The position numbers were made by a program, and so were the translations under genes. A stretch of 64,000 nucleotides of DNA from Escherichia coli (GTDB taxonomy: Bacteria; Pseudomonadota; Gammaproteobacteria; Enterobacterales; Enterobacteriaceae), in NCBI RefSeq assembly GCF_029227855.1, contig NZ_CP074357.1, one strand, 5' to 3'. The notes under the pieces are model-generated. The model saw only the letters and a list, made by a program, of their open reading frames with translations. It did not search any database and was not told where the DNA came from. Shown here in pieces: positions 1-23,557 of this stretch (positions within the stretch are counted from its first letter, which is position 1; the number at the start of each line of letters is the position of its first letter).

Positions 1-95
1 CCTGGGCGAAATGCGCCTGGTAAGCAGAGTTTTTGAAATGTAAGGCCTTTGAATAAGACAAAAGGCTGCCTCATCGCTAACTTTGCAACAGTGCC
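1..95 (+). mobile_element. IS26 right-end fragment (partial, runs off window start)
   Basis: nt 1-43 encode the Tnp26 C-terminus (..[14 protein letters not shown]), nt 82-95 are the terminal IR TTTGCAACAGTGCC; identical to the right ends of the complete IS26 copies. Confidence 0.9.
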
Positions 96-540
96 CACTG
101 ATCCGCATGCCCGTTCCATACAGAAGCTGGGCGAACAAACGATGCTCGCCTTCCAGAAAACCGAGGATGCGAACCACTTCATCCGGGGTCAGCACCACCG
201 GCAAGCGCCGCGACGGCCGAGGTCTTCCGATCTCCTGAAGCCAGGGCAGATCCGTGCACAGCACCTTGCCGTAGAAGAACAGCAAGGCCGCCAATGCCTG
301 ACGATGCGTGGAGACCGAAACCTTGCGCTCGTTCGCCAGCCAGGACAGAAATGCCTCGACTTCGCTGCTGCCCAAGGTTGCCGGGTGACGCACACCGTGG
401 AAACGGATGAAGGCACGAACCCAGTGGACATAAGCCTGTTCGGTTCGTAAACTGTAATGCAAGTAGCGTATGCGCTCACGCAACTGGTCCAGAACCTTGA
501 CCGAACGCAGCGGTGGTAACGGCGCAGTGGCGGTTTTCAT
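96..540 (-). pseudogene. intI1: intI1 5' fragment (class 1 integron integrase), 3' part removed by IS26
   Basis: Sequence 96-540 is identical in register to the 5' part of the longer intI1 fragment at 30070-30867 (start codon complement at 538-540); abuts IS26 IR at 95/96. Confidence 0.9.
425..453 (+). promoter_or_regulatory. Pc cassette promoter, PcH1-type (-35 TGGACA, -10 TAAACT, 17-bp spacer)
   Basis: Hexamers read directly at 425-430 and 448-453 inside the intI1 5' end; Pc variant naming from established integron literature. Confidence 0.75.
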
Positions 541-686
541 GGCTTGTTATGACTGTTTTTTTGTACAGTCTATGCCTCGGGCATCCAAGCAGCAAGCGCG
601 TTACGCCGTGGGTCGATGTTTGATGTTATGGAGCAGCAACGATGTTACGCAGCAGGGCAGTCGCCCTAAAACAAAGTTAACCCAGG
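541..686 (+). other. attI1 region of class 1 integron 5'-CS (inactive P2: 14-bp spacer between TTGTTA and TACAGT)
   Basis: Identical to 30868-31010 except for the absence of a GGG triplet; first cassette begins after ..CAAAGTTA. Confidence 0.7.
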
Positions 687-1169
687 ATGAGAACCTTGAA
701 AGTATCATTGATGGCTGCGAAAGCGAAAAACGGCGTGATTGGTTGCGGTCCAGACATACCCTGGTCCGCGAAAGGGGAGCAGCTACTTTTTAAAGCATTG
801 ACCTACAATCAGTGGCTTCTGGTGGGTCGCAAGACGTTTGAATCTATGGGCGCACTCCCCAATAGGAAATACGCGGTCGTTACCCGCTCAGGTTGGACAT
901 CAAATGATGACAATGTAGTTGTATTTCAGTCAATCGAAGAGGCCATGGACAGGCTAGCTGAATTCACCGGTCACGTTATAGTGTCTGGTGGCGGAGAAAT
1001 TTACCGAGAAACATTACCCATGGCCTCTACGCTCCACTTATCGACGATCGACATCGAGCCAGAGGGGGATGTTTTCTTCCCGAGTATTCCAAATACCTTC
1101 GAAGTTGTTTTTGAGCAACACTTTACTTCAAACATTAACTATTGCTATCAAATTTGGAAAAAGGGTTAA
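687..1169 (+). CDS. dfrA14: trimethoprim-resistant dihydrofolate reductase, DfrA1/5/14 clade (likely dfrA14) gene cassette
   Basis: 160-aa ORF ..[63 protein letters not shown].. typical type A DHFR; first cassette after attI1; allele assigned from memory plus the known dfrA14-arr-2-cmlA5 array. Confidence 0.75.
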
Positions 1170-1279
1170 CAAAGCTATGCAATCGACGGCAAAAAGCTTC
1201 GTTCGCTTCGCGCACTACGCCTTTTCCGCGATTGATAGCGACGTTATGCAGCCAAATCCCAACAATTAAGGGTCTTAAA

Positions 1280-1732
1280 ATGGTAAAAGATTGGATTCCC
1301 ATCTCTCATGATAATTACAAGCAGGTGCAAGGACCGTTCTATCATGGAACCAAAGCCAATTTGGCGATTGGTGACTTGCTAACCACAGGGTTCATCTCTC
1401 ATTTCGAGGACGGTCGTATTCTTAAGCACATCTACTTTTCAGCCTTGATGGAGCCAGCAGTTTGGGGAGCTGAACTTGCTATGTCACTGTCTGGCCTCGA
1501 GGGTCGCGGCTACATATACATAGTTGAGCCAACAGGACCGTTCGAAGACGATCCGAATCTTACGAACAAAAAATTTCCCGGTAATCCAACACAGTCCTAT
1601 AGAACCTGCGAACCCTTGAGAATTGTTGGCGTTGTTGAAGACTGGGAGGGGCATCCTGTTGAATTAATAAGGGGAATGTTGGATTCGTTAGAGGACTTAA
1701 AGCGCCGTGGTTTACACGTCATTGAAGACTAG
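1280..1732 (+). CDS. arr-2: rifampicin ADP-ribosyltransferase Arr-2 gene cassette
   Basis: 150-aa product MVKDWIPISHDNYKQVQGPFYHGTKANLAIGDLLTTGF.. (Arr family); true start inside ORF 1142..1732. Confidence 0.9.
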   Translation: MVKDWIPISHDNYKQVQGPFYHGTKANLAIGDLLTTGFISHFEDGRILKHIYFSALMEPAVWGAELAMSLSGLEGRGYIYIVEPTGPFEDDPNLTNKKFPGNPTQSYRTCEPLRIVGVVEDWEGHPVELIRGMLDSLEDLKRRGLHVIED

Positions 1733-1924
1733 TCCTTTGCATAACAAAGCCATCAAACCGGACGCCAGAGATTCCGCGCCTGTTGCGCATGGCTTCGCCA
1801 TTTTATGCGCAATAGGCGCGCCACCCTGTCGCCGTTTATGGCGGCGTTGGGCGCACAATAAGGCTCCTCGCAGAGTTGCTTGAAAGTTGTTACGATTCAA
1901 ATTCAATCATGAGATAGTCAGCAG

Positions 1925-1954
1925 ATGAGCACTTCCAAGAACGCAGACAAGTAA
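1925..1954 (+). promoter_or_regulatory. cmlA leader peptide ORF (MSTSKNADK) of the translational attenuator
   Basis: 9-codon ORF atgagcacttccaagaacgcagacaagtaa upstream of the cmlA GTG start; known feature of cmlA cassettes. Confidence 0.7.
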
Positions 1955-2052
1955 GCCGCAGCAACCTTCATTTTTCGGTTGTTGCGGCGTTCTCATGAAT
2001 CCTTTTGCTCTACGGGAGCGCCGCCAAATCCTTTGTTCAAGGAGATGGTTTC

Positions 2053-2345
2053 GTGCGCTCAAAAAACTTTAGTTGGCGGTACTCCCTTGCCGCCACGGTG
2101 TTGTTGTTATCACCGTTCGATTTATTGGCATCACTCGGCATGGACATGTACTTGCCAGCAGTGCCGTTTATGCCAAACGCGCTTGGTACGACAGCGAGCA
2201 CAATTCAGCTTACGCTGACAACGTACTTGGTCATGATTGGTGCCGGTCAGCTCTTGTTTGGACCGCTATCGGACCGACTGGGGCGCCGCCCCGTTCTACT
2301 GGGAGGTGGCCTCGCCTACGTTGTGGCGTCAATGGGCCTCGCTCT
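2053..2345 (+). pseudogene. cmlA5: cmlA5-type chloramphenicol exporter, first ~98 codons only, truncated by IS26
   Basis: VRSKNFSWRYSLAATVLLLSPFDLLASLGMDMYLPAVPFMPNALGTTASTIQLTLTTYLVMIGAGQLLFGPLSDRLGRRPVLLGGGLAYVVASMGLAL then IS26 IR GGCACTGTTGCAAA at 2346. Confidence 0.9.
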
Positions 2346-3165
2346 GGCACTGTTGCAAATAGTCGGTGGTGATAAACTTATCATCCCCTTTTGCTGATGG
2401 AGCTGCACATGAACCCATTCAAAGGCCGGCATTTTCAGCGTGACATCATTCTGTGGGCCGTACGCTGGTACTGCAAATACGGCATCAGTTACCGTGAGCT
2501 GCAGGAGATGCTGGCTGAACGCGGAGTGAATGTCGATCACTCCACGATTTACCGCTGGGTTCAGCGTTATGCGCCTGAAATGGAAAAACGGCTGCGCTGG
2601 TACTGGCGTAACCCTTCCGATCTTTGCCCGTGGCACATGGATGAAACCTACGTGAAGGTCAATGGCCGCTGGGCGTATCTGTACCGGGCCGTCGACAGCC
2701 GGGGCCGCACTGTCGATTTTTATCTCTCCTCCCGTCGTAACAGCAAAGCTGCATACCGGTTTCTGGGTAAAATCCTCAACAACGTGAAGAAGTGGCAGAT
2801 CCCGCGATTCATCAACACGGATAAAGCGCCCGCCTATGGTCGCGCGCTTGCTCTGCTCAAACGCGAAGGCCGGTGCCCGTCTGACGTTGAACACCGACAG
2901 ATTAAGTACCGGAACAACGTGATTGAATGCGATCATGGCAAACTGAAACGGATAATCGGCGCCACGCTGGGATTTAAATCCATGAAGACGGCTTACGCCA
3001 CCATCAAAGGTATTGAGGTGATGCGTGCACTACGCAAAGGCCAGGCCTCAGCATTTTATTATGGTGATCCCCTGGGCGAAATGCGCCTGGTAAGCAGAGT
3101 TTTTGAAATGTAAGGCCTTTGAATAAGACAAAAGGCTGCCTCATCGCTAACTTTGCAACAGTGCC
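2346..3165 (+). mobile_element. IS26 (820 bp, both 14-bp IRs present)
   Basis: GGCACTGTTGCAAA at 2346-2359 and TTTGCAACAGTGCC at 3152-3165; no 8-bp target duplication (flanks ctcgctct / ggattgaa). Confidence 0.97.
2409..3113 (+). CDS. tnp26: IS26 transposase Tnp26 (234 aa from MNPFKG; ORF track gives 240-aa form from 2391), G184 wild type
   Basis: [41 protein letters not shown].. Confidence 0.95.
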   Translation: MNPFKGRHFQRDIILWAVRWYCKYGISYRELQEMLAERGVNVDHSTIYRWVQRYAPEMEKRLRWYWRNPSDLCPWHMDETYVKVNGRWAYLYRAVDSRGRTVDFYLSSRRNSKAAYRFLGKILNNVKKWQIPRFINTDKAPAYGRALALLKREGRCPSDVEHRQIKYRNNVIECDHGKLKRIIGATLGFKSMKTAYATIKGIEVMRALRKGQASAFYYGDPLGEMRLVSRVFEM

Positions 3166-3234
3166 GGATTGAATATAACCGACGTGACTGTTACATTTAG
3201 GTGGCTAAACCCGTCAAGCCCTCAGGAGTGAATC

Positions 3235-4140
3235 ATGACCGTAGTCACGACCGCCGATACCTCCCAACTGTACGCACTTGCAGCCCGACATGGGCTCAAG
3301 CTCCATGGCCCGCTGACTGTCAATGAGCTTGGGCTCGACTATAGGATCGTGATCGCCACCGTCGACGATGGACGTCGGTGGGTGCTGCGCATCCCGCGCC
3401 GAGCCGAGGTAAGCGCGAAGGTCGAACCAGAGGCGCGGGTGCTGGCAATGCTCAAGAATCGCCTGCCGTTCGCGGTGCCGGACTGGCGCGTGGCCAACGC
3501 CGAGCTCGTTGCCTATCCCATGCTCGAAGACTCGACTGCGATGGTCATCCAGCCTGGTTCGTCCACGCCCGACTGGGTCGTGCCGCAGGACTCGGAGGTC
3601 TTCGCGGAGAGCTTCGCGACCGCGCTCGCCGCCCTGCATGCCGTCCCCATTTCCGCCGCCGTGGATGCGGGGATGCTCATCCGTACACCGACGCAGGCCC
3701 GTCAGAAGGTGGCCGACGACGTTGACCGCGTCCGACGCGAGTTCGTGGTGAACGACAAGCGCCTCCACCGGTGGCAGCGCTGGCTCGACGACGATTCGTC
3801 GTGGCCAGATTTCTCCGTGGTGGTGCATGGCGATCTCTACGTGGGCCATGTGCTCATCGACAACACGGAGCGCGTCAGCGGGATGATCGACTGGAGCGAG
3901 GCCCGCGTTGATGACCCTGCCATCGACATGGCCGCGCACCTTATGGTCTTTGGTGAAGAGGGGCTCGCGAAGCTCCTCCTCACGTATGAAGCGGCCGGTG
4001 GCCGGGTGTGGCCGCGGCTCGCCCACCACATCGCGGAGCGCCTTGCGTTCGGGGCGGTCACCTACGCACTCTTCGCCCTCGACTCGGGTAACGAAGAGTA
4101 CCTCGCTGCGGCGAAGGCGCAGCTCGCCGCAGCGGAATGA
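3235..4140 (+). CDS. mph(A): macrolide 2'-phosphotransferase Mph(A)
   Basis: 301-aa product MTVVTTADTSQLYALAARHGLKLHGPLTVNELGLDYRIVIATVDDGRRWVLRIPRRAEV..; first gene after IS26 as in the canonical IS26-mph(A)-mrx-mphR(A)-IS6100 unit. Confidence 0.95.
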   Translation: MTVVTTADTSQLYALAARHGLKLHGPLTVNELGLDYRIVIATVDDGRRWVLRIPRRAEVSAKVEPEARVLAMLKNRLPFAVPDWRVANAELVAYPMLEDSTAMVIQPGSSTPDWVVPQDSEVFAESFATALAALHAVPISAAVDAGMLIRTPTQARQKVADDVDRVRREFVVNDKRLHRWQRWLDDDSSWPDFSVVVHGDLYVGHVLIDNTERVSGMIDWSEARVDDPAIDMAAHLMVFGEEGLAKLLLTYEAAGGRVWPRLAHHIAERLAFGAVTYALFALDSGNEEYLAAAKAQLAAAE

Positions 4141-5375
4141 GCGAACGTCGATATAGCCCGCTCGCGACGCTGTTCGCGGCGACCTTTCTCTTCCGGATCG
4201 GCAACGCGGTGGCGGCCCTCGCGCTTCCATGGTTCGTCCTGTCTCATACAAAGAGCGCGGCCTGGGCGGGCGCCACGGCCGCTAGCAGCGTCATCGCGAC
4301 CATCATCGGCGCGTGGGTTGGTGGTGGCCTCGTCGATCGGTTCGGGCGCGCGCCCGTCGCATTGATCTCGGGTGTGGTGGGCGGCGTGGCCATGGCGAGC
4401 ATCCCACTGCTCGATGCCGTTGGCGCCCTCTCGAACACTGGGCTGATCGCTTGCGTGGTGCTCGGTGCTGCGTTCGACGCACCCGGTATGGCCGCGCAGG
4501 ACAGTGAGCTGCCCAAACTCGGCCACGTCGCCGGGCTCTCCGTTGAGCGCGTCTCGTCACTGAAAGCGGTGATCGGGAACGTCGCGATTCTAGGTGGCCC
4601 GGCCCTTGGGGGGGCCGCAATCGGCCTGCTTGGCGCTGCGCCAACGCTCGGGCTGACGGCGTTCTGCTCCGTCCTTGCAGGTCTGCTCGGCGCGTGGGTG
4701 CTTCCCGCGCGTGCCGCTCGGACGATGACCACGACGGCGACTCTCTCCATGCGCGCCGGCGTCGCTTTTCTCTGGAGCGAACCCCTGCTGCGCCCTCTCT
4801 TTGGTATAGTGATGATCTTCGTGGGCATCGTTGGCGCCAACGGCAGCGTCATCATGCCTGCGCTGTTTGTAGATGCAGGACGCCAAGTAGCAGAGCTCGG
4901 GCTGTTCTCCTCAATGATGGGGGCTGGTGGTCTCCTTGGCATTGCCATTCATGCGTCGGTCGGCGCCCGGATATCAGCGCAGAACTGGCTGGCGGTGGCA
5001 TTTTGTGGCTCTGCGGTGGGCTCGCTTCTGCTTTCACAGTTGCCAGGCGTGCCGGTGCTGATGTTGTTGGGCGCGCTCGTGGGACTGCTGACCGGCTCAG
5101 TCTCTCCCATTCTCAACGCTGCCATCTACAACCGCACGCCGCCAGAACTTCTCGGCCGGGTACTCGGCACGGTCTCGGCGGTGATGCTGTCAGCCTCGCC
5201 CATGGTTATGCTTGCGGCCGGCGCGTTTGTCGACCTTGCTGGTCCGCTCCCTGGCCTCGTTGTATCGGCCGTGTTTGCGGGGCTCGTGGCTCTACTCTCG
5301 CTCCGTCTTCAATTTGCTACAATGGCGGCGGCAGCCACAGCCTCCGCCCCAACCCATACAGAAGGTGAACACTGA
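4137..5375 (+). CDS. mrx(A): MFS transporter Mrx(A) of the mph(A) operon
   Basis: 412-aa hydrophobic ORF overlapping mph(A) stop; multiple TM segments. Confidence 0.9.
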   Translation: MSERRYSPLATLFAATFLFRIGNAVAALALPWFVLSHTKSAAWAGATAASSVIATIIGAWVGGGLVDRFGRAPVALISGVVGGVAMASIPLLDAVGALSNTGLIACVVLGAAFDAPGMAAQDSELPKLGHVAGLSVERVSSLKAVIGNVAILGGPALGGAAIGLLGAAPTLGLTAFCSVLAGLLGAWVLPARAARTMTTTATLSMRAGVAFLWSEPLLRPLFGIVMIFVGIVGANGSVIMPALFVDAGRQVAELGLFSSMMGAGGLLGIAIHASVGARISAQNWLAVAFCGSAVGSLLLSQLPGVPVLMLLGALVGLLTGSVSPILNAAIYNRTPPELLGRVLGTVSAVMLSASPMVMLAAGAFVDLAGPLPGLVVSAVFAGLVALLSLRLQFATMAAAATASAPTHTEGEH

Positions 5376-5959
5376 TGCCCCGCCCCAAGCTCAAGTCCGA
5401 TGACGAGGTACTCGAGGCCGCCACCGTAGTGCTGAAGCGTTGCGGTCCCATAGAGTTCACGCTCAGCGGAGTAGCAAAGGAGGTGGGGCTCTCCCGCGCA
5501 GCGTTAATCCAGCGCTTCACCAACCGCGATACGCTGCTGGTGAGGATGATGGAGCGCGGCGTCGAGCAGGTGCGGCATTACCTGAATGCGATACCGATAG
5601 GCGCAGGGCCGCAAGGGCTCTGGGAATTTTTGCAGGTGCTCGTTCGGAGCATGAACACTCGCAACGACTTCTCGGTGAACTATCTCATCTCCTGGTACGA
5701 GCTCCAGGTGCCGGAGCTACGCACGCTTGCGATCCAGCGGAACCGCGCGGTGGTGGAGGGGATCCGCAAGCGACTGCCCCCAGGTGCTCCTGCGGCAGCT
5801 GAGTTGCTCCTGCACTCGGTCATCGCTGGCGCGACGATGCAGTGGGCCGTCGATCCGGATGGTGAGCTAGCTGATCATGTGCTGGCTCAGATCGCTGCCA
5901 TCCTGTGTTTAATGTTTCCCGAACACGACGATTTCCAACTCCTCCAGGCACATGCGTAA
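5375..5959 (+). CDS. mphR(A): TetR-family repressor MphR(A)
   Basis: 194-aa ORF overlapping mrx stop, N-terminal HTH region ..FTLSGVAKEVGLSRAALIQRFTNRDTLL.. Confidence 0.9.
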   Translation: MPRPKLKSDDEVLEAATVVLKRCGPIEFTLSGVAKEVGLSRAALIQRFTNRDTLLVRMMERGVEQVRHYLNAIPIGAGPQGLWEFLQVLVRSMNTRNDFSVNYLISWYELQVPELRTLAIQRNRAVVEGIRKRLPPGAPAAAELLLHSVIAGATMQWAVDPDGELADHVLAQIAAILCLMFPEHDDFQLLQAHA

Positions 5960-6396
5960 ACGGAGGTGTGCAGAGTCCCTGCGGCAGGCGACGAACACGA
6001 CCGTCGTCGATTAGTACCGGTACGGTCGGTGGTATCGAAGTCTTGATCACCACTCAGGTCTACGGCTTACAAATGGTGACCATCCCGATACTTGCGTCAG
6101 AGCACCGGGCCGATTCTTTGACAGTGAATCACTCCCGTAAGGTTGTGCCGGTGTGGGTGTCCCGGGTCGAGACGATACTCCGCCAATGCGCCCAGCAAAC
6201 AACCTGGCCATCGCAGGTGGTGGGGAGCGGTGTGGCGGATGAGTTGGACAAGTTGGTGTAGCAGCACGAGCACGGCGAGATAACATCGCAGGAGTTCGAC
6301 ATGCTCAAGAGACAGCTGATTGCGAATCGCGATGCAGATTCATAACCCGATTGCGGGTTGGCTTCACTCCACCATCACCGAGCAGACTAGCACGGC

Positions 6397-6718
6397 GGGC
6401 TCTGTTGCAAAGATTGGCGGCAGTCAGAGGTAGGCTGTCGCTCTGCGCCGATCAGGCGGCTGCTGCGAAATGGTGGTTGAGCATGCCCATGGCCTCCGTC
6501 AGCGCCGAGGGCCCAATGCCAAAAGCTCTCTCCACAAGGCGCACCTCGCCCCTGATGCCGGGCTGCAGGCACCAGGGGCGAGCCTGTCCTTTGCGCAGGG
6601 CTCGCATGACTTCGAATCCCTTGATCGTGGCATAGGCCGTGGGGATCGATTTGAAACCGCGCACCGGCTTGATCAGTATCTTGAGCTTTCCGTGATCGGC
6701 CTCGATCACGTTATTGAG
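6397..6718 (-). mobile_element. IS6100 remnant (IR plus 3' end of transposase), truncated by IS26
   Basis: IR GGCTCTGTTGCAAAGATTGGCGGCAGTCAGAGG at 6397; minus-strand frame gives IS6-family Tnp C-terminus ..[45 protein letters not shown].. Confidence 0.85.
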
Positions 6719-7500
6719 GGCACTGTTGCAAATAGTCGGTGGTGATAAACTTATCATCCCCTTTTGCTGATGGAGCTGCACATGAACCCATTCAAAGGCC
6801 GGCATTTTCAGCGTGACATCATTCTGTGGGCCGTACGCTGGTACTGCAAATACGGCATCAGTTACCGTGAGCTGCAGGAGATGCTGGCTGAACGCGGAGT
6901 GAATGTCGATCACTCCACGATTTACCGCTGGGTTCAGCGTTATGCGCCTGAAATGGAAAAACGGCTGCGCTGGTACTGGCGTAACCCTTCCGATCTTTGC
7001 CCGTGGCACATGGATGAAACCTACGTGAAGGTCAATGGCCGCTGGGCGTATCTGTACCGGGCCGTCGACAGCCGGGGCCGCACTGTCGATTTTTATCTCT
7101 CCTCCCGTCGTAACAGCAAAGCTGCATACCGGTTTCTGGGTAAAATCCTCAACAACGTGAAGAAGTGGCAGATCCCGCGATTCATCAACACGGATAAAGC
7201 GCCCGCCTATGGTCGCGCGCTTGCTCTGCTCAAACGCGAAGGCCGGTGCCCGTCTGACGTTGAACACCGACAGATTAAGTACCGGAACAACGTGATTGAA
7301 TGCGATCATGGCAAACTGAAACGGATAATCGGCGCCACGCTGGGATTTAAATCCATGAAGACGGCTTACGCCACCATCAAAGGTATTGAGGTGATGCGTG
7401 CACTACGCAAAGGCCAGGCCTCAGCATTTTATTATGGTGATCCCCTGGGCGAAATGCGCCTGGTAAGCAGAGTTTTTGAAATGTAAGGCCTTTGAATAAG
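6719..7500 (+). mobile_element. IS26 lacking the last 38 bp including the right IR
   Basis: Left IR at 6719; sequence matches IS26 up to ..CCTTTGAATAAG (7500) then diverges (gagagcatgaaaaacc..) instead of ACAAAAGGCTGCC..TTTGCAACAGTGCC. Confidence 0.85.
6782..7486 (+). CDS. tnp26: IS26 transposase Tnp26 (G184 wild type)
   Basis: Identical protein to the copy at 2409-3113. Confidence 0.95.
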   Translation: MNPFKGRHFQRDIILWAVRWYCKYGISYRELQEMLAERGVNVDHSTIYRWVQRYAPEMEKRLRWYWRNPSDLCPWHMDETYVKVNGRWAYLYRAVDSRGRTVDFYLSSRRNSKAAYRFLGKILNNVKKWQIPRFINTDKAPAYGRALALLKREGRCPSDVEHRQIKYRNNVIECDHGKLKRIIGATLGFKSMKTAYATIKGIEVMRALRKGQASAFYYGDPLGEMRLVSRVFEM

Positions 7501-7592
7501 GAGAGCATGAAAAACCTCGGGGCAGCCATCGAATGATGCCATCTACAGGGGTTAAAATAACCACCATCATTTCATAACAATACCTGCTGACT

Positions 7593-8183
7593 ATGAAGAT
7601 CTACGTCATCAAAATAGCAGTTCATGGAGTCAGTCCGATGGTCTGGCGTCGGCTGAGAATTGCTGCCGACACGTCACTGGCCGCGCTTCACTTCATTTTC
7701 CAGATAGTGCAGGGCTGGGGGGACGACCATCTCCATCAATTTCACATTTATGGCAAAGATTACGGTATCTCCTACGAAGGAGGCATCGGTTTTGTCGATA
7801 ATCCGTTCCGGGTCGTGATTGATGATTTTGCTTTTGATGCTGGCGATCGCTTTACCTATGAATACAATTTCTTTGAGCACTGGCTTCATGACATTCGTGT
7901 TGAGGCCATTTATGAAAACTCTACGCTGAAAGCGCCGTTTTGTATAAGCGGCCATGGTATGCCCGGAGCCACAGCTGCGGATGAGTTCGATAAAACCCTG
8001 GCGTTTCTTGAAGCTATCGTTAATGCGGATGATGAAACAACGGTCGGCGAGATCCGCCCTTTTGCTGACGACCTGGATGCTGTCAGGTTCAACCGCCACA
8101 AAATCAACCGGCAACTGAGCAGGCTCGACCTTGCATCTCCGGTACTGGAGCCTGAAGTTATCTGGCTGGGCCGTCGTCGCTGA
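7593..8183 (+). CDS. hypothetical protein, plasmid pRiA4b ORF-3-like family
   Basis: 196-aa ORF with the family-typical ..SPMVWRRLRI.. and ..HLHQFHI.. motifs (family recalled from memory). Confidence 0.6.
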   Translation: MKIYVIKIAVHGVSPMVWRRLRIAADTSLAALHFIFQIVQGWGDDHLHQFHIYGKDYGISYEGGIGFVDNPFRVVIDDFAFDAGDRFTYEYNFFEHWLHDIRVEAIYENSTLKAPFCISGHGMPGATAADEFDKTLAFLEAIVNADDETTVGEIRPFADDLDAVRFNRHKINRQLSRLDLASPVLEPEVIWLGRRR

Positions 8184-15927: not shown

Positions 15928-18507
<2,580 letters not shown>

Positions 18508-18782: not shown

Positions 18783-19442
<660 letters not shown>

Positions 19443-19612: not shown

Positions 19613-20485
<873 letters not shown>

Positions 20486-20810
20486 CTGTCAGACCAAGTT
20501 TACTCATATATACTTTAGATTGATTTAAAACTTCATTTTTAATTTAAAAGGATCTAGGTGAAGATCCTTTTTGATAATCTCATGACCAAAATCCCTTAAC
20601 GTGAGTTTTCGTTCCACTGAGCGTCAGACCCCTGTTAAAAGCAGCTCACGGGGAACGCGTCAGTCCGGCTTCATAACGGGTCGGCTGGCAGCATCTGACT
20701 CAGCAAAAGACCGGGCGCTGTGAGCGGAAATATGGCCGGTTTTCGCCAGAACCCGGTTCCACGCAGAATTACACCTGCACTGAATATACCGCTTCTGGCG
20801 TCGATTTTTT

Positions 20811-20863
20811 CTGCTCCCCTGCAGCATGAGGCTCTGTAAGGCAGCCTGCTGCAAGGGGAGCAG
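20811..20863 (+). promoter_or_regulatory. long imperfect hairpin (16-17-bp stem) just upstream of the PBP gene
   Basis: CTGCTCCCCTGCAGCA ..20-nt loop.. TGCTGCAAGGGGAGCAG read directly; no following T-tract. Confidence 0.4.
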
Positions 20864-20875
20864 ACTCCAGCGAAA

Positions 20876-22624
20876 ATGATAAAAAACTCCGCGATGAAAA
20901 ATAAACAAAGTATTCGCCCGTCATCACCTGAGAAGGGATTCAGCAACGTCAGATATAATATTCTTCTTGCCGGTATCGCATTAATCTTTATCGTGCTGGT
21001 TGCCAGGCTCACCGGACTTCAGCTTTTTGACCACGCTGTCCTGGAAAATGCGGCTGACCGTCGATCCGTACGGACACTTGCACTGCCAGCACAGCGCGGA
21101 ACCCTGACCGATCGTTACGGCGTTGTTCTCGCCATGAGCGTGCCGGCACGTGACATCATTGCTGATCCAAAACGCATCGCTGCCGCTCATCCGGACTTCG
21201 CGGAAGCCAGATGGGCTTTTCTGGCCGACTTGCTGGATATCACGCCTGAGGAACTTCGCAGAACTATTCAAGATAATTCGGACAAGGAATTCCTGTTTCT
21301 GAAGAAAAAGTCGCCCCTGTCATTGTCCAGGGCCGTGTCACAGCTGCATCTGCCGGGCATAAGTCAGAAATACAATGAAAATCGCTACTATCCGCTGGGT
21401 GAGGCATCAGCCTCGCTCATTGGTGTGACCGGTGCCGAAAATAGAGGGCTGAGTGGTATTGAGCAGAGCTTTAACACCGTTCTGAGAAAGGACTTCGGGG
21501 TGAAAAAAATACGCAAAAACGCCAGGGGGGGCGTCATCAGCGTGATCCAGTATGACGCTCCGGAAACTGCACCGGCGATCAGGCTGAGTATTGACAGTGT
21601 GCTTCAGTATATTGTTTACAGCCGGTTAAGGGAGGGGGTCGAGCAACATCACGCCCAGTCAGGCGCTGCGGTGCTTGTCAGCGTAAACACCGGCGAAATT
21701 CTGGCTATGGCATCCTATCCGTCGTTTAATCCCAACCGTTTTTCCGGTGCCACTTCCGCTGAAATGCGTAACGTGGCGATTAATGACAGCTTTGAGCCGG
21801 GTTCAACGGTTAAACCCTTCGTCATTCTTGAAGGCCTGCGCCGCCATATTATCAGCAGCAGCACGCTTCTTGACACAAGGCCGTTCAGGGTTGACGGCCA
21901 TCTTATCCGGGACGTGGGATACTGGCCGGCGCTGACGCCGACCGGCATACTTCAGAAATCCAGTGATACCGGAGTTTCACATATTGCCCTGGCGATGCCT
22001 TCGGATGCGCTGGTAAAAACGTATTCATCCTTCGGGCTGGGAAAACCGACAGGGCTGGGCCTTCCCGGTGAAAGTACTGGTTACTTTCCGTTCAGTCGCC
22101 ATCGATGGGCTGATATTGAGCGCGCCACCTTCGCTTTTGGCTACGGCCTCCGGGTAACCCCGCTCCAGTTAGCCAGAGCCTATGCCACTCTCGGGGCCTG
22201 TGGCGTTTATCATCCGTTATCCGTTACACGGTTATCCGCGCCGGTGTACGGTGAGCAGGTGGCGGACCCGAAGCTTGCCGATGCTGTAATCAGAATGATG
22301 GAAAGTGATGTGTTACCCGGCGGAAGTGGCGTAAGGGCAGCTGTACCGGGCTACCGTCTGGCAATAAAAACCGGAACCGCAGAGAAGTTAGGTGCCGGTG
22401 GAAAATATGACGGGGGGCATATTACCTATACGGCAGGCGTCGCGCCGGCGAGCCGTCCTGAAGTGGCACTGGTTGTGGTTATTAACAATCCCAAAGCGGG
22501 ACAGCATTTTGGTGGCTCAGTGGCGGCGCCTGTCTTCGGCCAGATTATCGGTCCGGTGCTTACCCGGCTGAAGATTGCACCGGATGCTTTACGTGCTCCG
22601 GTGGTACACCGACAGTCCGGCTGA
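20876..22624 (+). CDS. class B penicillin-binding protein, FtsI/PBP3-like transpeptidase
   Basis: 582 aa, N-terminal TM helix, ..EPGSTVKPF.. (SXXK), ..LQKSSDTG.. (SSN position reads SSD), ..KTGTAE.. (KTG); aligns by eye to E. coli FtsI. Confidence 0.85.
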   Translation: MIKNSAMKNKQSIRPSSPEKGFSNVRYNILLAGIALIFIVLVARLTGLQLFDHAVLENAADRRSVRTLALPAQRGTLTDRYGVVLAMSVPARDIIADPKRIAAAHPDFAEARWAFLADLLDITPEELRRTIQDNSDKEFLFLKKKSPLSLSRAVSQLHLPGISQKYNENRYYPLGEASASLIGVTGAENRGLSGIEQSFNTVLRKDFGVKKIRKNARGGVISVIQYDAPETAPAIRLSIDSVLQYIVYSRLREGVEQHHAQSGAAVLVSVNTGEILAMASYPSFNPNRFSGATSAEMRNVAINDSFEPGSTVKPFVILEGLRRHIISSSTLLDTRPFRVDGHLIRDVGYWPALTPTGILQKSSDTGVSHIALAMPSDALVKTYSSFGLGKPTGLGLPGESTGYFPFSRHRWADIERATFAFGYGLRVTPLQLARAYATLGACGVYHPLSVTRLSAPVYGEQVADPKLADAVIRMMESDVLPGGSGVRAAVPGYRLAIKTGTAEKLGAGGKYDGGHITYTAGVAPASRPEVALVVVINNPKAGQHFGGSVAAPVFGQIIGPVLTRLKIAPDALRAPVVHRQSG

Positions 22625-22688
22625 ACAGAGCCTGTTTACTCATTATTTATCTATTATTACTTAACTTAATTTTAAAAAGGATATTAAT

Positions 22689-23546
22689 ATGAAAAAGATC
22701 CGCCTTATTATAATCTCTTTACTGGCTGGAATGTGTACTCCAGCATTATCTACACCAGTCAATGTTACTGATACAATACAAAGCACAGAAGACCATATCA
22801 AAGGTCGGGTTGGTTTTACTGAAATAGACTTTTTATCCGGGAAGGTTCTGAGTAGTCATCGCCGTGAAGAACGTTTTCCTATGATGAGCACATTCAAAGT
22901 TTTGTTATGTGGAGCAATATTAGTACGTGTTGATAAAGGGCTTGAACAACTTGAACGCCGAATTACCTATAATAAGCATGACCTGGACGACTATTCTCCA
23001 CTAACCAGTCAGCACATTGCAGATGGAATGACGGTTTCTGAGTTATGCAATGCTGCCATTACCACCAGTGATAACACTGCTGCAAATTTATTGCTATCAA
23101 CTATTGGCGGGCCGGAGGGATTAACTCATTTTCTGCGTAGCACTGGTGATAGTTATACAAGGCTTGATCGACACGAACCCAGCCTTAATGAGGCGAAGCC
23201 TGGCGATGAGCGTGATACCACCACTCCGGCAGCGATGGCTCAAACGCTACAAAAATTGTTAAACGAAAGTGTACTTACAGAAAAATCTCGAAAAAAATTA
23301 ATAAGCTGGATGCAGGAAGATAAAGTCGGCGGGCCTCTGTTCCGCTCTGTACTGCCAGCTGGCTGGATGATAGCGGATAAAACAGGAGCAGGTGATCACG
23401 GATCTCGGGGCATCGTTGCACTGTTGGGCCCCGGAGGCAAGCCATCTCGTATAGTAGTCCTGTATATTACAAATACTCATTCATCTATGAATGAACTCAA
23501 CGAGCATATTGCAGGGATCGGAGATTCAGTAATTAAGAACTGGTAA
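22689..23546 (+). CDS. blaLAP-2: class A beta-lactamase LAP (LAP-2 is the allele usually linked to qnrS1)
   Basis: 285 aa TEM-like: ..[17 protein letters not shown].., ..SDNTAANLL.., ..[12 protein letters not shown].., ..[12 protein letters not shown].. Confidence 0.8.
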
Positions 23547-23557
23547 TATATTTACAG

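Follow-up and report, generated by a model that had tools for sequence, protein, structure and literature searches.

The 64,000-nucleotide stretch of Escherichia coli DNA analysed here (assembly GCF_029227855.1, contig NZ_CP074357.1; hereafter the window) carries, immediately upstream of the beta-lactamase gene blaLAP-2, a complete gene for a class B penicillin-binding protein (PBP) of the FtsI2 type, an alternative PBP3, which we refer to as ftsI2. Our analysis makes it likely that this gene encodes an intact FtsI2-type PBP bearing the Asp that belongs to its family, that it stems from an older LAP island, and that, although its product is probably a working transpeptidase, the gene is now mainly a plasmid passenger. 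The gene and the landmarks of its product lie in the window as follows.

20876..22624, plus strand: ftsI2-type class B PBP gene (alternative PBP3), 582 codons from the ATG at 20876
20954..21019, plus strand: predicted N-terminal membrane anchor YNILLAGIALIFIVLVARLTGL, a hydrophobic stretch that aligns with the transmembrane segment of E. coli FtsI
21803..21814, plus strand: STVK motif (catalytic Ser and Lys), aligned with S307-K310 of E. coli FtsI
21959..21967, plus strand: SSD replacing SSN, with the Asp codon GAT at 21965-21967 opposite N361 of E. coli FtsI
22367..22375, plus strand: KTG motif, of which KTGT aligns with K494-T497 of E. coli FtsI

The original prediction, made from the letters of the window, had described a full-length class B PBP with a membrane anchor and STVK and KTG motifs beside blaLAP, and Pfam, phmmer and pairwise alignment all bore this description out. 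The feature had been drawn from 20811, which is the start of a hairpin; the gene itself starts at 20876 or at a second in-frame ATG at 20894, the start used by RefSeq records, which gives a protein of 576 aa. Pfam placed a PBP_dimer domain (PF03717) at residues 70-224 and a Transpeptidase domain (PF00905) at residues 263-558, and these pedestal and transpeptidase domains, together with the hydrophobic N-terminal segment, make up the FtsI-like architecture of a class B PBP. The best phmmer match among solved structures in the PDB was E. coli FtsI (7onw, E 1.4e-159). Pairwise alignment with that protein showed that S307, K310, S359 and K494-T-G are all kept, as are R23, S61, R167, E193 and R210, residues that matter in FtsI genetics. 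Thus the plasmid protein has the architecture, the SXXK and KTG motifs and the pedestal residues of E. coli FtsI, and differs from it in the SSN motif, in lying outside the dcw cluster and in an identity of 48% (48.2% over 564 aa). Against the NCBIfam FtsI model (NF011685) it scored 617.4 bits, below the cut-off of 737 for canonical FtsI. Its neighbours in the window are a remnant of ampH and blaLAP-2, with no ftsL or murE, in contrast to the dcw cluster of E. coli K-12, and its G+C content is 54.5% versus 43.7% for blaLAP-2 (35.7% at third codon positions).

In the second active-site motif, an ungapped phmmer alignment set LQKSSNVGVSKLALAMPS of E. coli FtsI against LQKSSDTGVSHIALAMPS of the plasmid protein. 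The Asp at the SSN position had thus been read correctly, and the E. coli motif quoted in the original prediction (LQKSSNVG) was also right; no intact SXN motif was found elsewhere in the protein. The idea that the Asp is a peculiarity of this one protein, an altered active-site motif, did not survive the comparison with its homologues. SSD was present in 120 of the 120 best homologues from a 5.8-billion-cluster database (106 SSDIG and 14 SSDTG), a list filled mostly by Erwiniaceae proteins, whose members besides the plasmid copies came from Erwinia, Pantoea, Duffyella, Kosakonia, Citrobacter sp. and Pectobacterium. In a sample of 150 FtsI-like proteins, each representing one 50%-identity cluster, 130 read SSN, 16 SSQ and 4 SSD; this clustering of about 15 billion proteins merges enterobacterial FtsI and FtsI2 into one cluster, represented by the plasmid protein itself (P0002), so that the distinction between them is hidden. 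The representatives more than 50% identical to the ftsI2 protein were the plasmid LAP-2-linked protein and a 262-aa Serratia fragment (P0256, 66%), and no others. Two non-enterobacterial representatives (P0289 and P0340) read SSD and 16 diverse ones SSQ, showing that substitution of the SXN Asn recurs outside Enterobacterales.

Proteins of the PBP3SAL/PBP3PARA type were found through an exact look-up of E. coli CspC, which led to contigs with the order cspC-PBP-rlmA (locus A). The Salmonella PBP3SAL gene is located between cspC and rlmA (PMC5736910), the catalytic Ser of PBP3SAL is at position 300 (PMC11586514), and the published identities to E. coli FtsI are 63% for PBP3SAL and 61% for Klebsiella PBP3PARA (PMC5736910, PMC11586514, PMC13251458). 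Both locus A proteins have 581 aa and carry S300-TVK and S352-S-D354 in LQKSSDTG, and their identities to E. coli FtsI are 63.7% and 61.2%; in location, length, Ser300 and identity they therefore match the published descriptions. The authors who described PBP3SAL write the motif as 'SXN/D' (PMC5736910). A docking paper on a Salmonella 'PBP3a' (Lys303, Ser352, Asp354; PMC12447407) calls the protein a kinase and was not used. GILQKSSDTGVSH is common to the plasmid protein and the locus A proteins, and the alternative PBP3s examined share Ile for Val356, Thr or Ile for Val362 and His for Lys366 (E. coli numbering). Because SSD is found in all 120 best homologues and in the locus A proteins, the Asp is not a lesion: it is the normal family residue of alternative PBP3s, rare among FtsI at large and fixed in the enterobacterial alternative PBP3s. 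The plasmid protein also has His, His and Phe at the positions aligned with Y511, Y540 and Y541 of E. coli FtsI, which form the aromatic wall of the beta-lactam pocket. HF for YY at 540/541 is shared by the plasmid protein and the Erwiniaceae-type clade described below, and among the alternative PBP3s examined His at the Y511 position was confined to the plasmid protein and its relative on an Enterobacter cancerogenus contig.

Second PBP3 copies have been named PBP3* or FtsI2 by García-del Portillo's laboratory, a name used for proteins that match both PBP3 and PBP3SAL with an identity of 45% or more and a coverage of 90% or more (PMC12516126). The ftsI2 protein falls within this definition: its identity to E. 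coli FtsI is 48.2% (564 aa aligned), and to the locus A protein that fits the description of PBP3SAL it is 47.9% (559 aa aligned). It is also an extra copy outside the dcw cluster that exists beside canonical ftsI, as the gene is plasmid-borne and its E. coli hosts keep their own ftsI. The Asp at the third SXN position is a hallmark of alternative PBP3s that emerged from the present comparison and lies outside the published definition.

We placed the protein in a neighbour-joining tree with 500 bootstraps, in which support was read as unrooted splits. The plasmid and E. cancerogenus proteins, which are 92% identical, grouped with the Erwiniaceae-type paralogues outside dcw (Erwinia, Pantoea, Kosakonia and Pectobacterium) at a bootstrap of 100%, and within this group the pair was sister to the remaining paralogues (92%), on a separate long branch. 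Identity of the plasmid protein was 58-62% to the paralogues of Erwiniaceae, Kosakonia and Pectobacterium and 47-48% to the PBP3SAL/PBP3PARA-type proteins, and a split uniting the plasmid protein with locus A had a bootstrap of 0%, so that it does not belong to the PBP3SAL orthologue group. Judged from the sequences, the plasmid gene is an alternative PBP3 that belongs to a deep branch near the Erwiniaceae/Kosakonia/Pectobacterium paralogues; it is not an orthologue of PBP3SAL. Its closest relatives, the chromosomal FtsI2 proteins of Erwinia, Pantoea, Duffyella, Kosakonia and Pectobacterium, have SSD, HFGG rather than YYGG and no His at the Y511 position, and are encoded by stand-alone genes, unlike the island-borne plasmid ftsI2. 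The chromosomal paralogues examined (Erwinia, Citrobacter sp., Kosakonia and RIT692) all stand alone outside the dcw cluster, the Erwinia one upstream of mdtABC-like RND genes. PBP3SAL (STM1836) and PBP3PARA (ftsI2) are, like the plasmid protein, second PBP3s outside dcw with the same domain layout, the same Asp for Asn and His for Lys, and coexist with canonical FtsI. In contrast to the plasmid gene, which follows ampH in an island with a PenR/AmpR-like regulator, their genes are chromosomal, lie between cspC and rlmA and are regulated by acid and OmpR, and the proteins belong to another clade.

The context of the gene in the window is made up of the following features.

20597..20634, minus strand: 38-bp terminal inverted repeat of Tn3, the outer end of a Tn3 remnant; reverse complement of GGGGTCTGACGCTCAGTGGAACGAAAACTCACGTTAAG, the Tn3 inverted repeat
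20635..20676, plus strand: last 42 nt of the island ampH with its stop codon, aligned with the end of the intact ampH of p34399
22625..22688, plus strand: AT-rich spacer of 64 bp between ftsI2 and blaLAP-2
22689..23546, plus strand: blaLAP-2, class A beta-lactamase (NCBIfam blaLAP 676.5 bits, cut-off 600)
23595..24266, minus strand: remnant of an IS3-family (IS2-like) transposase downstream of blaLAP-2, inside the stretch shared with p34399
24720..25442, plus strand: IS26 transposase gene (Tnp26), just past the right boundary of the shared LAP fragment

The window matched plasmids of the p34399 type (NZ_CP010385.1), mobilizable Enterobacter plasmids of about 106 kb, at 99.98% over 20631-24677; the shared fragment runs from 20635, directly after the end of Tn3, to 24677. 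The Tn3 remnant beside it carries tnpR (18849-19442) and blaTEM-1 (19625-20485). On p34399 the block is complete and comprises genes for an MBL-fold hydrolase, a helix-turn-helix protein and a DUF6622 protein, a divergent LysR gene, complete ampH, ftsI2, blaLAP-2, IS2 and qnrS1. Its intact ampH (6882-8042) scored 444.6 bits against the AmpH equivalog (cut-off 266), and the best NCBIfam match of the LysR protein was the beta-lactamase regulator PenR (352 bits, below the cut-off of 625). This PenR/AmpR-like LysR gene is divergent from ampH (5737-8042), an order that recurs in the E. cancerogenus and Cedecea loci described below. In the window, Tn3 has cut off all of ampH except the 42 nt, and the native 199-bp spacer with its hairpin has been kept. 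These data show that ftsI2 reached the window plasmid inside an older island, which was trimmed by Tn3 on the left and by IS26 on the right.

The window's blaLAP-2 is LAP-2 at 100% in plasmid records, and the window holds the same blaLAP-2-qnrS1 module as other Enterobacterales plasmids, at 99.98-100% identity. Papers on this module describe blaLAP-2, an IS2 element, qnrS1 and IS26 (PMC4635468), and one plasmid map draws the PBP gene as FtsI without comment (PMC8949098). Most plasmids with the module keep just the 3' part of ftsI2, whereas the window keeps the whole gene.

A second version of the block, at about 92% nucleotide identity, was found on E. cancerogenus contig QGAL01000019.1, where an OmpC/PhoE-like porin gene (6614-7882) lies between ftsI2 and a LAP-like bla gene (88% aa identity), and the porin gene is flanked on either side by a copy of the last ~53 bp of ftsI2. 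The same variant occurs in Cedecea sp. (JBBCOZ010000040.1), where a deletion has taken ftsI2 and the greater part of the porin gene and ampH is frameshifted. The original prediction had raised the possibility of a relic of the blaLAP progenitor locus; descent of ftsI2 from an earlier blaLAP setting is well founded, as ampH, the PBP gene and bla stand complete on the Enterobacter plasmids and in the 92% version. Four of the island proteins deal with beta-lactams or D-Ala-D-Ala. The p34399 plasmid also carries, at 95-423, a decayed copy (74%) of the junction of the ftsI2 3' end, the spacer and the bla 5' end, 8 kb upstream of the intact ftsI2-blaLAP-2 and with the bla start codon mutated. From these sequences, the adjacency of ftsI2 and bla is old. 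The G+C content is 54-57% for ftsI2, ampH and the LysR gene and about 43% for blaLAP-2 and the porin gene, a break which indicates that bla, with the porin gene, has another origin and was added to the ampH-ftsI2 backbone. When the LAP-2-linked version was compared with that of E. cancerogenus, the ratio of nonsynonymous to synonymous substitution rates (dN/dS) was 0.18 for ftsI2, 0.19 for bla and 0.16 for ampH, and the value of 0.18 indicates that ftsI2 has evolved as a functional gene. The layout LysR-ampH-ftsI2-(porin)-bla hints at a unit for cell-wall defence under common regulation.

A peptide-pattern scan of one genome for each of 100,044 species found no chromosomal progenitor of ftsI2, the relatives recovered being at most 62% identical, and no ordinary FtsI was found next to a blaLAP relative. 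On metagenome contig ENA ERZ27247416 k141_192703, a gene for a LAP-like class A beta-lactamase (79%) immediately follows one for a GMC-family oxidoreductase, and a PBP gene is absent; this bla gene may be chromosomal and related to the LAP lineage.

The spread of the gene was examined in 72,556 plasmid records and 5,426 complete E. coli genomes. The 2,960-bp ftsI2-bla segment matched 439 plasmid records, mostly from Klebsiella, Salmonella, Escherichia and Enterobacter, and at least 80% of it was present in 110 of them; the gene is thus a mobile, plasmid-borne PBP3 paralogue, as had been proposed. With tblastn, about 408 near-identical plasmid copies of ftsI2 were recovered, some of which depositors had annotated as 'cell division protein FtsI'. 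From rows spaced evenly down the tblastn ranking, we estimated that ~28% of these copies are full length, ~21% begin at codon 121 directly after IS26, and ~46% begin at codon 219, the last being an unannotated remnant on widespread IncFII plasmids of ~87 kb in Klebsiella pneumoniae. Beside all copies that were inspected, blaLAP-2 was intact. Among the complete E. coli genomes, 34 contained ftsI2, full length in 27 and mostly on plasmids; the chromosome of strain WCHEC050613 (NZ_CP019213.3, 2515664-2517394) carries a full-length, 100% identical copy, which indicates that the module has also moved off plasmids. A native ftsI2 was not detected in the 5,426 genomes, where matches were either copies of at least 99% identity or chromosomal ftsI genes at 60-80%. 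Since most plasmid copies are truncated, plasmid spread does not depend on ftsI2, and we infer that present plasmids carry it largely as a passenger of the blaLAP-2/qnrS1 module. This pattern may leave room for an effect where ftsI2 is intact, as it is in the window.

What the intact protein would do can be proposed from its better-studied relatives. PBP3SAL binds Bocillin-FL at pH 5.8 and not at pH 7.4; in acid it complements an E. coli ftsI(ts) strain, and several PBP3-directed beta-lactams bind to it poorly (PMC5736910). In Klebsiella, low pH raises ftsI2 expression ~10-fold, and a strain without the gene has altered beta-lactam minimum inhibitory concentrations (MICs) when the pH is low (PMC13251458). 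The plasmid FtsI2 protein, with its conserved FtsI residues, is probably a working septal DD-transpeptidase that docks with FtsW as FtsI does. If PBP3SAL and PBP3PARA are taken as a guide, it probably works preferentially at acidic periplasmic pH and probably binds PBP3-targeting beta-lactams poorly; an effect of the gene on beta-lactam susceptibility is plausible on the same analogy. We propose the Asp, together with the His at the position of K366, as a possible pH switch that would make acylation pH-dependent. In solved PBP3-beta-lactam complexes, the acyl-amide carbonyl of the ligand is hydrogen-bonded by the Asn of the SXN motif as donor; the switch is proposed because a protonated Asp could donate this bond in place of Asn and a charged Asp could not. 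The Lys-to-His change at the K366 position would add a group titrating near pH 6, and His, His and Phe at the Y511, Y540 and Y541 positions could further change drug binding.

We weighed several other explanations. The gene might instead be a selected mobile tolerance or resistance determinant, a beta-lactam-insensitive, acid-active septal transpeptidase for hosts that lack FtsI2, such as E. coli, retained for the reduced susceptibility to PBP3-targeting drugs that it would confer. About 110 plasmid records and 27 complete E. coli genomes have the whole gene together with its native upstream sequence, the two identity bands seen in E. coli (at least 99%, and 60-80%) point to a species without native ftsI2, and purifying selection has acted on the gene; relatives that share its Asp have low beta-lactam affinity and low-pH effects on MICs (PMC5736910, PMC13251458), and the substitutions at the three pocket tyrosines fit as well. 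About three-quarters of the plasmid copies, however, are 5'-truncated while blaLAP-2 is intact, annotation based on AMRFinder gives ftsI2 no resistance function, the searched literature contained no phenotype report for the plasmid gene, and its expression signals are unclear, so that we consider this explanation unlikely, if still to be reckoned with. A broader version, more speculative and doubtful on balance, is that the island represents an ancestral beta-lactam-responsive operon of a PenR/AmpR-like regulator, ampH, an acid-active, low-affinity PBP3, a porin and bla; intact copies of ftsI2 would then be a mobile Gram-negative counterpart of mecA, at present overlooked by catalogues of resistance genes. 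In such a scheme, the mobile transpeptidase would let E. coli, Shigella and Salmonella septate under aztreonam, ceftazidime and cefiderocol in acidic niches such as urine and phagosomes, with the Asp and the His at the K366 position serving as its pH switch. The concept is the same as for MecA/PBP2a of staphylococci, an extra class B PBP on mobile DNA beside resistance functions, but there is no homology past the level of class B PBPs, the plasmid protein scoring 24-50 bits against NCBIfam mec cut-offs of 750-1490.

That the change from Asn to Asp abolished transpeptidation and penicillin binding, leaving a decaying pseudo-enzyme, could be argued from the near invariance of the SXN Asn in FtsI-like proteins (130 of 150 cluster representatives). 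This is contradicted by the fixation of Asp in all 120 best homologues, by its presence in the proteins that fit PBP3SAL, an enzyme capable of both cell division and Bocillin binding (PMC5736910), and by the intact reading frame of ftsI2 with a dN/dS of 0.18, and we regard a dead enzyme as very improbable. An ordinary ftsI taken from the dcw cluster of the blaLAP progenitor species, as the label 'cell division protein FtsI' of some depositors would have it, is hardly credible. Identity to E. coli FtsI is 48%, versus a reported 80-100% among canonical FtsI proteins of Enterobacterales (PMC12516126), the protein does not reach the NCBIfam cut-off for FtsI, its gene stands beside ampH and bla rather than ftsL and murE, and it clusters with paralogues outside dcw.

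Several observations nevertheless count against our preferred explanation, an intact FtsI2-type transpeptidase carried mainly as a passenger. Locus A grouped with canonical FtsI (bootstrap 93%) and a single clade of all SSD proteins received a bootstrap of just 7%, in a tree for which neighbour-joining, a distance method, was the sole method used. Transfer of function from PBP3SAL and PBP3PARA is thus based on a shared motif and shared paralogue status and not on orthology, and studied members of the protein's own clade were not found in the searched literature. Neither was a pH-switch role of the Asp and His, which is our own proposal. In addition, inspection and scanning of the sequence found no convincing promoter or Shine-Dalgarno sequence before the ATG at 20876 or 20894. 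The chromosomal ftsI2 genes of Erwinia, Kosakonia and RIT692 share a motif, CGAAyyGAAACACAGTT, about 90 nt upstream, which is absent upstream of plasmid ftsI2. It is absent upstream of the cspC-rlmA locus genes too; it could be a candidate regulator site, and resembles an OmpR half-site. Taken at face value, the tree would mean that the Asp arose twice or was lost once in canonical FtsI, and the shared Ile/Asp/Thr/His signature would favour common descent of the SSD-region segment.

Alternative PBP3s have so far been described from chromosomes, in Salmonella, Klebsiella and other Enterobacterales, and the type of gene in the window is found on conjugative multidrug-resistance plasmids of Klebsiella, Salmonella, E. 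coli, Enterobacter and Shigella. Neither the mobility of an FtsI2 nor the presence of Asp/His in every alternative PBP3 seems to have been reported before: no analysis of the plasmid gene was found in the searched literature beyond the bare 'FtsI' arrow in a plasmid map, and reviews of alternative PBP3s do not mention plasmids. If expressed and similar to PBP3SAL/PBP3PARA, the gene would be an unlisted transferable modifier of low-pH susceptibility to PBP3-targeting beta-lactams. If it is inert, the gain is one of annotation, the gene being an FtsI2-type passenger and neither 'FtsI' nor a mutated PBP3. Separately, the occurrence of Asp/His in all alternative PBP3s examined, from two clades that do not group in the tree, points to a simple structural basis for acid dependence.

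The spacer between ampH and ftsI2 contains one further feature.

20811..20863, plus strand: hairpin in the ampH-ftsI2 spacer, by folding a 17-bp stem with one bulge and a short inner stem

The original prediction had placed a hairpin before the start codon; the hairpin is real, with a 17-bp stem formed by the arms CTGCTCCCCTGCAGCA and TGCTGCAAGGGGAGCAG, and it ends 12 nt before the ATG at 20876, not 13. The minimum free energy of the region was -44.6 kcal/mol versus -31.4 ± 3.4 for shuffled sequences (z -3.9), and none of 200 shuffles was as stable. Within the 3' arm, AAGGGGAG lies 15 nt ahead of the first ATG, a greater distance than normal Shine-Dalgarno spacing allows. We rejected a rho-independent terminator: the stem is followed by ACTCCAGCGAAAATG with no T-run, a T6 run lies 5' of the stem and the terminator scan was negative, and because no T-run follows, the hairpin is not a classical terminator. 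We also rejected membership of an Rfam family, where just a weak isrG match was obtained (18.8 bits, gathering cut-off 100). No second copy of the hairpin was found within the window. In the E. cancerogenus orthologue, the one diverged orthologue compared, the hairpin is present but weaker and partly degraded, and the changes break pairs without compensation, so that no covariation support was found there. Our best guess, held with low confidence, is that the hairpin is an inter-cistronic stabiliser or attenuator between ampH and ftsI2.

A metagenome contig (ENA ERZ773397 NODE_992, 1-4542) carries the order rsmH-ftsL-[hybrid ftsI::ftsI2]-blaLAP-2-IS2-qnrS1-plasmid genes. In the hybrid, native ftsI codons 1 to ~309 are fused in frame to ftsI2 sequence, 100% identical to the plasmid gene, from STVK onward, and the switch falls inside a 26-nt stretch at the STVK codons (TTTGAGCCGGGTTCAACGGTTAAACC). 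The hybrid is more likely an assembly chimera than a real mosaic PBP3 produced by recombination. Further out in the window, an aminoglycoside 3-N-acetyltransferase-like open reading frame lies to the right of IS26 (25735-26619), and on the left an insertion sequence transposase interrupts Tn3 tnpA (17059-18321). Both were recognised by eye and look like typical mosaic features of a multiresistance region.

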